Assembly (NCBI GenBank): GCA_964612085.1
Contig: CAZTCJ010000009.1
Location: 3,730-67,729 of the forward strand
DNA: 64,000 bases
Direction: 5' to 3'
Origin: an uncultured Alphaproteobacteria bacterium
GTDB taxonomy: Bacteria > Pseudomonadota > Alphaproteobacteria > JAJFIK01
Part shown: piece by piece, positions 39,554 through 43,392 of the stretch
How positions within the stretch are numbered: the stretch's first letter is position 1
Layout of the letters: every line of letters starts with the position of its first letter
Position numbers and translations under genes: made by a program
The notes under the pieces: model-generated
Database searches by the model: none
What the model saw: the letters and a program-made list of their open reading frames with translations, nothing else
What the model was told of the DNA's origin: nothing

Positions 39554-39629
39554 GGGGCCGTAGCTCAGTTGGGAGAGCGCAGCAATCGCACTGCTGAGGT
39601 CAGGGGTTCGATTCCCCTCGGCTCCACCA
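39554..39629 (+). tRNA. tRNA-Ala (anticodon CGC)
   Basis: Hand-folded 76-nt cloverleaf: acceptor GGGGCCG/CGGCUCC with the G3:U70 alanine identity pair, anticodon stem CAGCA/UGCUG, loop AUCGCAC, T-loop UUCGAUU, encoded CCA. Confidence 0.95.
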
Positions 39630-39870
39630 TCCGATCCGACGGTGCGCAGCACCGGCAAATCGACCTGGTGGGTCGATTTGAGGAGAGGATGCCCCGAGCC
39701 CTGCGAGGGGCCTGAACAACCAAACAGCTTTAGCGCCGACTTTCCTGCCCTCTTTTGCTTCATTCGGCTTGCGCGGCTTACCCGCCGGTTGCACACTCAA
39801 ATATGGGGGGGACTGCGGCTCTAGTCTTGAGCATGCGCCCAAACTTTATGCTTAAAATTGCAGGGCGCGC

Positions 39871-41001
39871 ATGCCGAATTTCGAAACCTGGGGCCCGGAA
39901 GAATGGACCGTCGTTGCACGGTTCGTTGGTGCTTTCGCGCAAGTCATTCTCGCTGTCGGCGCCTTGATCGGCGGCGTGTGGGCTGTGATCACTTATAGCC
40001 GAAACCGCCGTTTTCAGGCTGCAAACTGGCTGAAAGATCTCTTCAAAGACGTTTACCTTAACGACTACTTCAATAAAGCCCGCTCCAGGATCGAGTATAA
40101 CTTTATGGAAGAAGTCGCGCCAGTTCTACAAAAACGCATTACAAACCGATCCATCCCAACAAATGAAAGAGAGCAGAACTTACTACTGGAAATCGACAAC
40201 TTTCTAAACATGTTCGAAGTTATTTTGTATTTAAGGGGAAATAGACAAATAAAAAGATCAGATATGTTTTCTGTATTTCGTTATTGGTTCTATGATCTGA
40301 TAAAACGCGAAGAGCATGCCTTATTGCGCAGTTATATTCTTGAGTTTCACTTCAAAAGTATTTCAGATTATGTCGACGAAGCCCAACAAGAACATGACTA
40401 TATTTTCGTCTACGGATTATTTCGGGAAAAAGAGTTCCAGAAACACTGGTCCGACTGCCTCGATTTCGAAAAAGCGAAGCCGGCCGTGGCAAGGGGTTCG
40501 ATCTATCACGCGAAGGCCAACAGTCCCGTCGCGAAGAGAACCGGCGGGGAAACCCGCAGCCCTCATGGATTTCCCTTCCTAATTTATGCGGCCAATGAGG
40601 ACGATCCCTCTTATGGCGTCGTGCACGGCGAAGCCGTTCCTATCCGAAAAGGGATGCGCCACAGGATTTTACAACGCATGGATGACCAGGAGGGGTATCG
40701 TCCGAATGAAGAAGCCGATTGCCCTTTGATTCGCCGCCGGATCCGGGTCCGCATGCCGCGCCCGGGTGTGGAAAATCCGCAGATCGATGTCGATAAGCAT
40801 TGGGAGCTTGTTGATGCGTGGTTATATATATTCAATCGCTACAGCGCGCAGTTCATGCCCACACAGCCTATCTTTGAGGATCATGTCTCGCTGAGCCTGC
40901 AAGACAGCGGACCGGATTCATACACGAAGATCCTCAAAGGCGACTGGATCAGTTATTTGGAGACCCTGAACCTGAATACCGGGGATTACAGAAAAACATG
41001 A
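39871..41001 (+). CDS. membrane-anchored protein: N-terminal TM + helical domain fused to a divergent GGCT/YtfP-like (gamma-glutamyl cyclotransferase fold) domain
   Basis: TM segment VVARFVGAFAQVILAVGALIGGVWAVI. C-terminal half aligns by eye to E. coli YtfP-type motifs: YIFVYGLFREKEF (vs FVYGSLR), VVHGEAVPI (vs VHGEVYRI, catalytic Glu), LQRMDDQEGY (vs LDxxEG), VDAWLYIF (vs AWMYVY). AT-rich codon usage. Confidence 0.75.
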   Translation: MPNFETWGPEEWTVVARFVGAFAQVILAVGALIGGVWAVITYSRNRRFQAANWLKDLFKDVYLNDYFNKARSRIEYNFMEEVAPVLQKRITNRSIPTNEREQNLLLEIDNFLNMFEVILYLRGNRQIKRSDMFSVFRYWFYDLIKREEHALLRSYILEFHFKSISDYVDEAQQEHDYIFVYGLFREKEFQKHWSDCLDFEKAKPAVARGSIYHAKANSPVAKRTGGETRSPHGFPFLIYAANEDDPSYGVVHGEAVPIRKGMRHRILQRMDDQEGYRPNEEADCPLIRRRIRVRMPRPGVENPQIDVDKHWELVDAWLYIFNRYSAQFMPTQPIFEDHVSLSLQDSGPDSYTKILKGDWISYLETLNLNTGDYRKT

Positions 41002-41495
41002 AGACCGCATCAGGCAATTCCGAAAAGCAATATTTGTTCCTATACGGATCCTTGCGACAAGGCCAGACCGACTTCGAAACGCTCGATCTCGGACAATATC
41101 TGGATTTTGTCGGCGAACGGTCGATGAAAGGATATCTCTACGATCTCGGCGCCTATCCTGGCGTCAAGCTAAACCCTTCGGAAGAAGAAAAAAAGAAGGG
41201 CTTGAAGGACGAGGTCAAAGGGGAACTTTTCGAGATCCGGGACAAGAAAGTGCTGACGACGCTTGATGCGTTTGAGCGCTTCGATGAGGAAAATCAAAAG
41301 GACTCTCTTTATATTAGGGTTGAAGTAGACGCTCTTGGTCCTGACGGAGCCCCCGCATGGACATATGAGTACAATCAGCCGATCGGCCCTAAACAACAAG
41401 CTGTCAAAGGCGGCGACTGGTTAAAGCACTTACGGAATAGGGAAGAGAAAAAGGCATCCGCCGAAAAGCGCCCCCTCATTGAGCGCAAAGCGTGA
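40998..41495 (+). CDS. gamma-glutamyl cyclotransferase-fold protein (GGCT/GGACT/YtfP-like)
   Basis: Canonical motifs LFLYGSLRQG, GYLYDLGAYPGV, VKGELFEI, LDAFERF...SLYIRVEV, PAWTYEY. ATGA overlap with the upstream ORF. Confidence 0.85.
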   Translation: MKTASGNSEKQYLFLYGSLRQGQTDFETLDLGQYLDFVGERSMKGYLYDLGAYPGVKLNPSEEEKKKGLKDEVKGELFEIRDKKVLTTLDAFERFDEENQKDSLYIRVEVDALGPDGAPAWTYEYNQPIGPKQQAVKGGDWLKHLRNREEKKASAEKRPLIERKA

Positions 41496-41508
41496 TGCCG
41501 GGGGCGAC

Positions 41509-42825
41509 ATGATACCGACAATTGGCCTGGAAGAAGAATTCTTCCTGATTGACGATAAGCTCTCCCCGCCTTTTGAGACCCGCAGATCCAAAATCGATGC
41601 TCTTGTTGAGTATCTAAATGAACAGCACAAAGAGGTTTGCGTTATACAGCGCTGTCCTGCGAATCCGGAAGAGTTCGGAAAAATTCCGGAACATTTCGAA
41701 CGTGAGCTTTTTTCTTGCATCATTGAACTCAAGACCGATTATCACTGGCAACTCGACCGGGTCTGGAACAGCCTGACCAGGCTGCGCAACGGTCTTGCGC
41801 AAGGCGCTTTGCATCATCAGTTCGAAGTTTTGGCGTCGGGCAGTCATCCTTTGGCCGACTGGCGCTGTTACAAAATGACGGGTGCGAAGAGAACCCCCCA
41901 TTTGCAAAATCTTTTTGGGGAACGATTCTTTGTGTGTGGCCTGCACGTCCATGTGGGCTTGGACAAAACGGACCGGGAAGGGCTCATTTGGCTGCTTCAA
42001 ATCTTCCGACCTCTACTGCCATTGTTCCTGGCCCTGACGGCCTCGTCACCCTTTTGGCGTGGCCACAATGCCCGCATGGCCTCCTGCCGCAGTTCCATTT
42101 TTGCGTCCATTCCCCGTGGGGGGCTCCCGCCGAAACTGCAGCGGTACAGGGAATTTGACGCTTATATGGAGGGTCTAAAAACCTTCGCAAAACCGCGCTC
42201 TCCAAAGGAACCGAAAGAGCTCAAGCAACCCCAATGGCTCGCGCGGCCCAGTATCCGGTTTCCGACGATCGAGATCCGCATCATGGATGCCTGCATCAAG
42301 GCCACGGACAGCATGGCCTTAGCCGCACTAATCCAAACGATTGCTCTGTTCGCCCAGTCTTTCCGCAATCCGCTTCTGCGTCTGCCCGGCAGCGTACCCG
42401 TTGTGGGACGGCGACTGGGGCGCAGAGCACATTTTATTCAGCTTTTGCAATCGCAACCGGATCAACTGATCGATGAAAACTTGTGGCGAGCAGCCCGGTT
42501 CGGTCATGATACGGAATTTATTTTCTCAATCCCCAACGACAGCGGGCGCACATCGTCGTATACGGTCAAGGATCTGTTAGACCGGATCATGACAATCTGC
42601 GATCCTGAGATAAACCAGTTGGGGAATCGGCCATGGCTCGATCCGATTCGAGACATTCTTGAATACGGCCCCTGCTTTAAATCTCAAGTGGACTTCTATA
42701 TTTGTCACAAACGAGAAACGCAGGACACAAGAAAAGCGCTTCAGGCCGTAACGCGAGCCCTGATCGATCGGACCATGGCGGAATTGTCCATGGGCGACCC
42801 GCAAACCGCTACGCAAACACGGTAA
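41509..42825 (+). CDS. carboxylate-amine ligase, glutamate-cysteine ligase family 2 (GCS2/YbdK-like)
   Basis: Matches YbdK along its length by eye: TIGLEEEFFLID, CIIELKT, GSHPLADW, FVCGLHVHVGL, LALTASSPFWRGHNARMASCRSSIF, RPSIRFPTIEIRIMDA. The ATG at 41509 lies 13 nt after the upstream stop. The track's TTG start at 41479 would overlap by 17 nt. Confidence 0.85.
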   Translation: MIPTIGLEEEFFLIDDKLSPPFETRRSKIDALVEYLNEQHKEVCVIQRCPANPEEFGKIPEHFERELFSCIIELKTDYHWQLDRVWNSLTRLRNGLAQGALHHQFEVLASGSHPLADWRCYKMTGAKRTPHLQNLFGERFFVCGLHVHVGLDKTDREGLIWLLQIFRPLLPLFLALTASSPFWRGHNARMASCRSSIFASIPRGGLPPKLQRYREFDAYMEGLKTFAKPRSPKEPKELKQPQWLARPSIRFPTIEIRIMDACIKATDSMALAALIQTIALFAQSFRNPLLRLPGSVPVVGRRLGRRAHFIQLLQSQPDQLIDENLWRAARFGHDTEFIFSIPNDSGRTSSYTVKDLLDRIMTICDPEINQLGNRPWLDPIRDILEYGPCFKSQVDFYICHKRETQDTRKALQAVTRALIDRTMAELSMGDPQTATQTR

Positions 42826-42960
42826 AGCTGCATCGAAACCAATGATAAAAGACTGCATCCTCTTTACGTTTGCGATATGTGCCGTTACCGCCTGCGCCGC
42901 GCCATCCGCAGATCTGCCGCCGCCGGAGCCCCGGCCCTGACCGTGTCAGCCCCCCGCACC

Positions 42961-43392
42961 ATGCCCTTCACCGGCGCCAAGATCGCGCTCCTTCAGGGCG
43001 CTGAGCTTCTCGTCTACAGGCGTGACGACAAGCCCGGTCTTCCGTTCCCCAATCTGTGGGACATGCCCGGCGGCGGGCGGGAGGGGGACGAGACGCCGGA
43101 AGACTGCGTGCTGCGTGAGACCTGGGAGGAGTTCGGCCTCACCATCGCAGCCCACCGGATCGTCTGGTCACTGAGCATGCCAAGCGCGAAGCGGCCGGGC
43201 CATGTGGGATGGTTTTTCGTGGCCTTCATCACCGATGAGGAGATCGCCAGCATCCGCTTCGGCGACGAGGGCCAGTACTGGCGCATGATGCCGGTCGAAG
43301 AGTATCTGGCGCGCGATGACGCGATCCCGCAATTGCAGGACCGGCTCAAAGCGTATCAGCGCAGCCTGGCCGATCAGACACCAGGGGACTAA
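42961..43392 (+). CDS. Nudix hydrolase
   Basis: Nudix box GGGREGDETPEDCVLRETWEEFGL. Start chosen at MPFTGAKIAL. Host-like high GC. Confidence 0.8.
   Translation: MPFTGAKIALLQGAELLVYRRDDKPGLPFPNLWDMPGGGREGDETPEDCVLRETWEEFGLTIAAHRIVWSLSMPSAKRPGHVGWFFVAFITDEEIASIRFGDEGQYWRMMPVEEYLARDDAIPQLQDRLKAYQRSLADQTPGD

Follow-up and report, generated by a model that had tools for sequence, protein, structure and literature searches.

What could be gained by encoding an enzyme predicted to form gamma-glutamyl amide bonds side by side with proteins related to those that break such bonds? The question is raised by three co-directional open reading frames (ORF1, ORF2 and ORF3) that follow a tRNA-Ala(CGC) gene in the genome of an uncultured alphaproteobacterium, within a stretch of 64,000 nucleotides (nt) of contig CAZTCJ010000009.1 (assembly GCA_964612085.1; positions 3,730 to 67,729 of the forward strand), referred to here as the window. 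An original prediction, made from the sequence alone, had proposed this cassette as a candidate undescribed gamma-glutamyl 'make-and-break' system, consisting of one ligase and two cyclotransferases, or one writer and two erasers. The analysis presented here identifies the cassette as a predicted ligase/cyclotransferase gamma-glutamyl couple of a known general type, set in a previously undescribed protein family and carried on a horizontally acquired operon, in which ORF2 is probably the single catalytic eraser.

The second gene product, ORF2, is matched by the Pfam family GGACT/AIG2-like (PF06094) over positions 1-119 of the 120-position model (65.5 bits, cut-off 22.8; E 8.2e-18), by phrog_2520, 'gamma-glutamyl cyclotransferase' (1.7e-13), and by Escherichia coli YtfP (1xhs; 3.8e-4), its closest solved structure. 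A Y16-G17-S18-L19 loop and E76 of a V-x-G-E motif are found in the aligned columns; the YG(S/T)L loop and the Glu of V-x-G-E are positions which we take, by analogy with human GGACT and GGCT, to be catalytic. By sequence, ORF2 is a probable canonical GGACT/YtfP-type cyclotransferase and the probable catalytic subunit of the ORF1-ORF2 pair. The third gene product, ORF3, is assigned to the YbdK/GCS2-type ATP-dependent carboxylate-amine ligases as a divergent, fast-evolving predicted member. GCS2 is the only Pfam family that it matches (109.9 bits, cut-off 21; E 2e-31), the YbdK subfamily model TIGR02050 is matched at 184 bits, above its cut-off of 176.4, and E. coli YbdK (1r8g) is the closest solved structure (3.4e-24). 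The motifs GLHVHVG (residues 144-150), SSPFWRG and EIRIMD lie inside the stretch aligned to 1r8g, with GLEEEF (residues 6-11) located N-terminal of it; the GhExE metal/ATP motif of the GCS2 ligases has been defined previously (PMC2588565). No PHROG, including those of the phage amidoligases, is matched by ORF3.

Aside from these two predicted enzymes, the cassette encodes in ORF1 a protein in which a transmembrane (TM) helix, a helical module and a divergent GGACT-like domain follow one another. The C-terminal half of ORF1 is placed in the GGCT fold, despite a sub-threshold Pfam score, on the basis of a family-specific hidden Markov model (HMM) and a structure model. The HMM, built from the GGACT domains of relatives sharing the N-terminal TM and helical module (the N-module), matches residues 172-324 at E=1.8e-20. 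The AlphaFold2 (AF2) model of ORF1 was made from a 61-sequence alignment (predicted local distance difference test, pLDDT, 83.1; predicted TM-score, pTM, 0.81), and the top five matches to it in a Foldseek search are all GGCT-fold proteins at probability 1.0, namely 6ky1 (ChaC2), 2qik (YkqA), 5hwi (yeast ChaC), 2rbh (GGCT) and 9i09 (crTPpart2). The catalytic columns are occupied in ORF1 by Y181-G182 and E254, with the loop reading YGLF rather than YGSL. In the model a single long helix (residues 9-63) includes the TM segment, whose flanks carry net charges of -3 on the N-terminal side and +3 on the C-terminal side. This acidic N-flank and basic C-flank predict an N-out/C-in topology, which would place the enzyme domain in the cytoplasm. 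The original prediction had read a full YtfP/GGACT motif set in ORF2, a YbdK/GCS2 identity in ORF3 and a diverged GGCT fold in the ORF1 C-terminus; every motif that it quoted is present at its position, and the profile and structure comparisons bear out all three assignments.

The N-terminal part of ORF1 defines a family of its own. When 1.84 billion representatives were scanned exhaustively with HMMER (threshold E<=1e-3), at least 242 protein clusters matched ORF1, nearly all of them over residues ~15-185, corresponding to the TM helix and helical module; a word-indexed search of 5.8 billion proteins recovered, for ORF1 and ORF2, only the queries themselves. Among 61 aligned members, Pfam GGACT is matched in 44, DUF4760 in 13 (best E 7.5e-5) and a GNAT domain in three. 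ORF1 itself has no match to DUF4760 (PF15956) at E<=1, and the link of the family to DUF4760 is transitive only. When 150 representatives were classified with the family GGACT profile, 84 consist of the N-module and one GGACT domain, two of the N-module and two GGACT domains and 52 of the N-module alone (<200 aa), with 12 of other make-up; most family members are single fusion genes. On its own, the N-module is modelled by AF2 as a seven-helix bundle (pLDDT 89.8), for which a structure search of the PDB gives no significant neighbour (best E ~2). The glutathione S-transferase C-terminal-domain matches that make up the majority of the Foldseek hits (E 2-7, probability <=0.15, TM-score <=0.40) were taken as chance. 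From sequence comparison, ORF1 is accordingly placed in an undescribed family. Its members share a helical module that is distantly DUF4760-like and predicted to be tethered to the membrane, and in most cases one GGACT domain is joined to this module on the same chain. DUF4760 proteins are likewise small, with a TM segment and helices, occur in bacteria and viruses and have no assigned function; the relatives of ORF1 are similar in size, a stand-alone form being found in the 52 representatives counted above. No functional literature on DUF4760 was found, and the single paper found to mention the domain makes no reference to a GGACT fusion. Family loci, for which genomes were scanned with an 11-sequence N-module alignment, are found in Actinomycetota, Alphaproteobacteria and Lentisphaeria, mostly in metagenome-assembled genomes (MAGs) from soil and peat. 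The family merits attention for its spread over several phyla and for a membrane module that has no structural relative in the PDB. At one locus (L024:7881-9404) the gene of a DUF389 multi-TM protein begins 3 nt after a stand-alone N-module gene (174 aa), indicating that the module also pairs with partners other than GGACT.

Does the cassette then encode two erasers? Two relatives, P0127 (432 aa) and P0140 (439 aa, Brevundimonas MAG), unite in one chain the N-module and two GGACT domains, the first degenerate and the second canonical, and are collinear with ORF1 followed by ORF2. A split form, in which an N-module/GGACT-like gene precedes an adjoining or overlapping GGACT gene of 150-230 aa, is found at L006, L011, L012, L029, L031 and L034; L006 encodes P0123, the closest relative of ORF1, and its downstream GGACT gene overlaps. 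The canonical GGACT members carry YG(S/T)L and G-E in the catalytic columns, while in most ORF1 relatives the YG loop, the catalytic Glu or both are gone from the membrane-tethered GGACT. Both are missing from the tethered copies of P0129, P0130, P0139, P0141 and P0142 and from the first domains of P0127 and P0140, and in P0123 the YGTL loop is kept and Lys replaces the Glu. These sequences show a trend towards pseudo-enzyme drift of the tethered GGACT wherever a second, canonical GGACT is present. The fused proteins and the degenerate tethered copies together argue for a scaffold and one eraser: a role as membrane scaffold or regulator, possibly with residual activity, is more likely for ORF1, and ORF2 is probably the single catalytic eraser. 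The two independent erasers of the original prediction were rejected on this evidence and are probably wrong.

The association of the pair with a ligase is not confined to the window. The pair has a directly linked GCS2 gene at three further loci, namely L011 (a Micropepsaceae chromosome), L012 and L029/L030 (a Rhizomicrobium MAG), and the arrangement differs among them: the order is ORF1-ORF2-ligase in the window and ligase-ORF1-ORF2 at L011 and L012, and a divergent ligase gene lies beside ORF1-ORF2 at L029. The linkage of the three families has been kept through these rearrangements of order and orientation, which argues for functional coupling. The linked ligases are 32-36% identical to ORF3, compared to <=30% for generic YbdK proteins among the best 120 of 3334 matches, and the four cassette-linked ligases, ORF3 included, group together in a neighbour-joining tree. 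The three best generic matches to ORF3 (P0003, P0004 and P0007) were rejected as representatives of the same system, as none has a GGACT neighbour. The best of these, P0003, is encoded at L001:217-4360 next to PhyR, NepR and extracytoplasmic-function (ECF) sigma factor genes of the alphaproteobacterial general stress response, a neighbourhood which hints that ordinary YbdK ligases may be stress-linked. The L012 contig (CAZLRW010000014.1) is labelled as a Flavobacteriaceae MAG; its GC content is 0.62, and argS, a lipoprotein gene and the genes that follow are syntenic with L011 and ~85% identical, so that the contig is probably mis-binned and alphaproteobacterial. Directly upstream of the GCS2 gene of L012 (L012:5231-6592, + strand) is a 453-aa multi-TM ORF with a third-codon-position GC content (GC3) of 0.59, low as in the cassettes, and no Pfam match, which is absent from L011 and the window and may be a fourth component of that locus.

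The layout and composition of the cassette in the window (Table 1) are in keeping with an acquired operon. ORF1 and ORF2 share an ATGA overlap (40998-41001). The ATG start of ORF3, adopted in the public gene call, lies 13 nt after the ORF2 stop and is preceded by GGGGG; the alternative TTG start would give a 17-nt overlap with ORF2. The GC content is 0.36-0.57 over ~39.95-42.8 kb and 0.60-0.67 outside, and GC3 is 0.55-0.59 in the three ORFs versus 0.79-0.83 in five flanking genes (FolD, YggT, NUDIX and two others). As the anomaly persists at synonymous sites, it reflects a foreign origin and not just the K/N/E/F-rich composition of the helical part of ORF1. The three-gene operon is horizontally acquired, being foreign-looking by composition. 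Similarly, the cassette is foreign in four of five hosts (window, L011, L012 and L031; GC3 ~0.5-0.6 versus 0.75-0.87), with that of L029 near-native in composition, or ameliorated. The cassettes occupy different chromosomal sites across hosts, L011 and L012 sharing one site.

Table 1. Features of the cassette and its borders in the window, in order of position.
Feature	Position	Strand	Description
tRNA-Ala(CGC)	39554-39629	+	Called by ARAGORN; left-hand landmark of the islet
Spacer/leader between tRNA and ORF1	39630-39870	+	241 nt; promoter presumed here
ORF1, 376 aa	39871-41001	+	TM helix, helical DUF4760-like module and divergent GGACT-fold domain
ORF1 TM helix, residues ~14-42	39910-39996	+	Kyte-Doolittle 19-residue windows > 1.6
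ORF1 helical module, residues ~43-170	39997-40380	+	Lowest-GC stretch of the cassette; family signature
ORF1 GGACT-fold domain, residues 172-324	40384-40842	+	Y181-G182 and E254 kept; C-terminal tail with GDW motif to residue 376
ORF2, 165 aa	40998-41495	+	Canonical soluble GGACT/YtfP-type cyclotransferase (predicted); probable catalytic subunit
ORF3, 438 aa (ATG) or 448 aa (TTG)	41509 (ATG) or 41479 (TTG) to 42825	+	Divergent YbdK/GCS2-type ligase (predicted)
Right-hand junction	42826-42876	+	51 nt; borders native NUDIX gene (42877-43392); GC3 0.59 to 0.82 across the junction

These values confirm the gene coordinates, the overlaps and spacing and the sharp GC fall after the tRNA, with recovery near 42.85 kb, that the original prediction had given. 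Its provision that the trio might prove to be a vertically inherited, syntenic core locus of matching composition is countered by the foreign GC3, the different sites and the rearranged gene order in relatives. Of its 'islet at a tRNA', the foreign composition stands and the significance of the tRNA does not: no integrase or transposase is encoded within 10 kb on either side of the cassette, no direct repeat of the tRNA 3' end was found at the cassette, and none of 11 related loci has a tRNA gene nearby. As neither an integrase nor tRNA-3'-end repeats were found, the reading as a tRNA-targeted integrative island was rejected, compositional deviation being the only hallmark of such an island that was found. 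An Rfam 'tmRNA' label on the 76-nt tRNA (47.1 bits versus a gathering threshold of 47) is a clan-competition artefact explained by the alanine tRNA-like domain of tmRNA, ARAGORN calling a normal tRNA. The 10-kb flanks are of a housekeeping nature, with IalB-like, RlmN, ArgG, FolD and YggT genes on one side and NUDIX, DUF748-like, DUF1329 and DUF1302 genes on the other, and neither a sigma-70-like promoter nor a terminator or an Rfam element was detected in the leader between tRNA and ORF1. When the YggT and NUDIX proteins of the flanks were looked up by exact match, only short contigs of the same organism were returned, which carry the insert or stop at the tRNA; the look-up of ORF1 returned none. 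Short Logan contigs of run SRR6462993 match the window at 99.8-100% identity, stopping within the tRNA (39580) and starting within the 3' end of ORF3 (42717); this sample contains the same organism with the insert.

That the three genes are juxtaposed by chance, or are decaying remnants without a joint function, is extremely improbable. The lack of a mobility gene and of att repeats, and the fact that the cassette of the window is a singleton at the sequence level, would be compatible with such an origin; against this, the three ORFs are intact and conserve their motifs, their starts overlap or are tightly spaced, linkage of these three families is seen in three or more lineages in rearranged order and orientation, and a fused ORF1+ORF2 form exists.

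The chemistries of the two enzyme families indicate what the coupling may achieve. GCS2 ligases use ATP to activate the gamma-carboxylate of free glutamate (Glu), to which an amine is added to give a gamma-glutamyl amide, while GGCT-fold enzymes cyclise a gamma-glutamyl residue bearing a free alpha-amino group to release 5-oxoproline and the amine. From these reactions, the product of ORF3 would be the kind of molecule that ORF2 can destroy. The reading that we favour, if tentatively and at somewhat less than an even chance, is that a horizontally acquired operon encodes a ligase and a cyclotransferase acting as a coupled module, with ORF1 organising it at the membrane. In this module ORF3 would join the gamma-carboxylate of free Glu to an amine X at the expense of ATP, candidates for X being cysteine, a polyamine or another small amine, and ORF2 would cleave gamma-Glu-X to 5-oxoproline and X. 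ORF1 would tether the system on the cytoplasmic face of the membrane via its TM helix and DUF4760-like module, and its divergent GGACT domain would serve as a scaffold, a regulator or a second, weak catalytic site, recruiting ORF2, perhaps into a physical complex, or gating it. With all parts active, the net reaction would convert Glu and ATP to 5-oxoproline, ADP and Pi. The role would be that of a conditionally gated gamma-glutamyl turnover or depletion module within the accessory gene set, responding to a stimulus sensed by the membrane module. A futile loop with this same net outcome, run by glutamate-cysteine ligase and GGCT, is known from glutathione-synthetase deficiency, where glutathione synthetase is missing. 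Neither the cassette nor its flanks encode a tailoring enzyme, carrier or transporter for a step intervening between the two reactions, so that a pathway of biosynthesis or catabolism is less likely than a gated turnover/depletion device or the transient storage and release of an amine.

The same chemistry bears on the possibility that the cassette covalently tags and untags a protein or envelope component, in the manner of pupylation or the phage amidoligase systems. One component is membrane-anchored, and the Pup ligase PafA has its closest relative in the GCS2 family (PMC2588565). As cyclisation by GGCT-fold enzymes depends on a free alpha-amino group, however, only single Glu adducts, and not peptide tags, could be removed; moreover, the cassette lacks any conserved small tag ORF or target gene, its catalytic domains are cytoplasmic according to the predicted topology, and ORF3 is without a match to the phage amidoligase PHROGs. 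Tagging is considered very unlikely.

Several points weigh against a coupled turnover module organised by ORF1. ORF3 scores below every NCBIfam equivalog cut-off (best NF010039, 231 bits versus 371), so that the substrates of YbdK cannot be transferred to it, and the cassette-linked ligases group on long branches. The Pfam GGACT match to ORF1 (residues 178-324; E 3e-4, 21.8 bits) falls just under the cut-off of 22.8 and the corresponding domain is degenerating in relatives, which leaves the role of this domain uncertain. The pair also occurs without a linked ligase, at L031 (Methylovirgula) and L034, and at single-gene N-module-GGACT loci no GCS2 gene is found in the available flank, which extends over 0.3-8 kb per locus. 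The ligase can hence be dispensed with, and an ordinary metabolite of the host may serve as substrate; judged from these sequences, the conserved core comprises the TM/DUF4760-like module and GGACT, with the ligase as a facultative third partner (four trio loci versus two pair-only loci). A futile cycle running constitutively would furthermore be costly, and the cassette encodes no regulator. Finally, the activities and roles proposed for the family members derive from sequences and structure models.

A further question is whether the cassette belongs to accessory small-molecule metabolism, the ligase gamma-glutamylating a particular amine or thiol, such as cysteine, a polyamine or an amine from the environment, for storage, for protection or for handling coupled to transport at the membrane, and the cyclotransferase freeing it on demand, as a mini gamma-glutamyl cycle or protecting group that could be useful in acidic-soil and peat bacteria. 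YbdK-type ligases are widespread on alphaproteobacterial chromosomes, and E. coli YbdK has a weak gamma-Glu-Cys ligase activity. The near-native composition of the L029 cassette and the site common to L011 and L012 suggest stable retention. At L008:5323-7755 (- strand), a fused ORF1+ORF2-like gene (Brevundimonas MAG) divergently adjoins the genes of an ornithine decarboxylase and a deoxyhypusine/homospermidine-synthase-like protein; this locus alone gives a hint of polyamines as gamma-glutamyl acceptors. Metabolite synthesis has also been predicted for neighbourhoods of a ligase and Aig2/GGCT genes (Iyer et al. 2008; PMC2588565). On the other hand, no oxidoreductase, transporter, carrier protein or further enzyme of a pathway is encoded in the cassette or its flanks, cleavage straight after ligation does no more than spend ATP, the polyamine link comes from a single locus, and both the pseudo-enzyme drift and the TM module are left unexplained. 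A role in small-molecule metabolism is for these reasons regarded as doubtful; if true, the cassette would represent the first operon-encoded bacterial gamma-glutamyl 'make-and-break' pair that is built on a YbdK ligase.

The neighbourhoods of the family members bear instead on an anti-phage or conflict role, in which a DUF4760-like sensor of infection or envelope damage would unleash the GGACT enzyme, fed by the ligase, and cause a collapse of Glu, ATP or gamma-glutamyl thiols of the abortive-infection type. Some relatives lie close to genes of mobile elements or of defence-like character. A phage integrase and a weakly matching PycTM-like protein are encoded near the L016 gene, an IS4 transposase near that of L013 and an IS3 OrfA near that of L034. 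At L023:173-5450, the N-module-GGACT gene P0250 is located between genes for a VirD4/TraG-type coupling protein of a type IV secretion system and a TIR_2-domain protein, which suggests carriage of this family gene on a conjugative element. At L033:4020-7819, P0131, an N-module protein without a recognisable GGACT domain, is encoded next to an N6_N4 DNA methylase and an AAA_14/DUF4143 ATPase. When 82 neighbour ORFs were searched with PADLOC, a methyltransferase (MTase), the candidate system PDC-S01, a TIR-like and a reverse-transcriptase-protease-like model were each matched by one ORF; the match to PDC-S01 (4e-101) is probably that of the L033 ATPase. A conflict role would also accommodate the patchy distribution over Actinomycetota, Alphaproteobacteria and Lentisphaeria, the foreign composition of the cassette, the modular N-domain with its variable C-termini and the extreme divergence, the query having been alone in the word-indexed search.

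These contexts lend a defence reading weak support, and they are offset by the negative results. The three cassette proteins have no match in PADLOC-DB v2, and PADLOC on 61 relatives gave one spurious match only (0.005). The family was not found in IMG/VR viral contigs, a phage genome collection, the PHROGs or PLSDB plasmids, the last of which were queried with ORF1 and the N-module member P0152. Plainly housekeeping flanks are present in the window and at L008, L011 and L031, only ~4 of the 82 neighbour ORFs are defence-like, and no link between GGCT-fold enzymes and phage defence was found in the literature, where two apparent matches to AIG2 and GGACT proved to be accession-number or primer-sequence artefacts. 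An anti-phage or conflict module is unlikely on balance, although it is the foremost of the alternatives. In agreement with the original prediction, which knew of no named defence system or pathway with this trio, none was found in PADLOC, NCBIfam, the PHROGs or the literature searches.

A bolder form of the coupled turnover module, in which the membrane sensor gates a futile cycle that fuels itself, would be a new metabolic-depletion effector of immunity or conflict, the conversion of ATP and Glu to 5-oxoproline arresting the cell upon attack by phage or on the envelope. We consider this form improbable. It would carry the corollary that the gamma-glutamyl compound destroyed by GGACT/YtfP-type enzymes is made by YbdK-type ligases. 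Metabolite-depletion effectors described to date act on NAD+, dNTP and ATP, and the conversion of glutamate and ATP to 5-oxoproline would, if the gated cycle were true, join them. Whichever role applies, YbdK-type ligases and YtfP/GGACT-type cyclotransferases are widespread in bacteria and, to our knowledge, without an established physiological substrate. A selected linkage of the two in a compact operon suited to heterologous expression offers a route to both orphan families, since the product of the ligase should be the substrate of the cyclotransferase.

Set against known systems, the enzymes of the cassette are familiar, and a defensive futile cycle would be an improbable addition to what is known of them. 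The butirosin biosynthetic enzymes BtrJ and BtrG likewise carry out an ATP-dependent gamma-glutamylation that is later reversed by a GGCT-fold cyclotransferase. BtrJ is, however, an ATP-grasp enzyme that acts on an intermediate bound to an acyl carrier protein (ACP) inside a large biosynthetic cluster, and no ACP or biosynthetic genes are found within 10 kb on either side of the cassette. In the gamma-glutamyl cycle of eukaryotes, in which glutamate-cysteine ligase is followed by GGCT or ChaC (the latter also present in E. coli), ATP-dependent gamma-glutamyl synthesis is similarly followed by cyclisation to 5-oxoproline, and the ORF1 model finds ChaC2 and GGCT among its best matches. Unlike the cassette, the enzymes of that cycle are not operon-encoded, have no comparable membrane module and function in glutathione metabolism with further enzymes (glutathione synthetase, GGT and oxoprolinase), and ORF2 belongs to the GGACT/YtfP subfamily rather than to ChaC. 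E. coli YbdK and YtfP provide the closest solved structures to ORF3 and ORF2; their genes are unlinked single genes, ORF3 is 60-70 residues longer than YbdK, and its score remains far from the equivalog level given above.

The closest parallels are ligase/cyclotransferase gene pairs of Firmicutes. Iyer, Burroughs and Aravind (2008; PMC2588565) described a carboxylate-amine ligase family of GCS2 size ('new CAL') that adjoins Aig2-family GGCT genes in Firmicutes, and pairs of an amidoligase (phrog_2443) and a gamma-glutamyl cyclotransferase (phrog_2520, the family matched by ORF2) are annotated in prophages of the firmicute Clostridium (PMC11318856). As in the cassette, an ATP-dependent amide ligase with a glutamine-synthetase (GS) fold is linked to a GGCT-fold cyclotransferase, and the pairs, which are functionally uncharacterised as well, have been assigned a predicted role in synthesising or modifying small gamma-glutamyl compounds. 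They differ in their ligase, which is of the 'new CAL' or Amidoligase_2 type rather than the YbdK/GCS2 type of ORF3 with its lack of PHROG matches, in having neither a TM/DUF4760-like module nor a duplicated or pseudo GGACT, and in their residence in Firmicutes and phages, the cassette being alphaproteobacterial and not found in phage collections. Of the undescribed make-and-break trio that was originally proposed, the absence of a matching named system holds; the pairing of a ligase with an Aig2/GGCT cyclotransferase had already been noted (PMC2588565), with a different ligase family.

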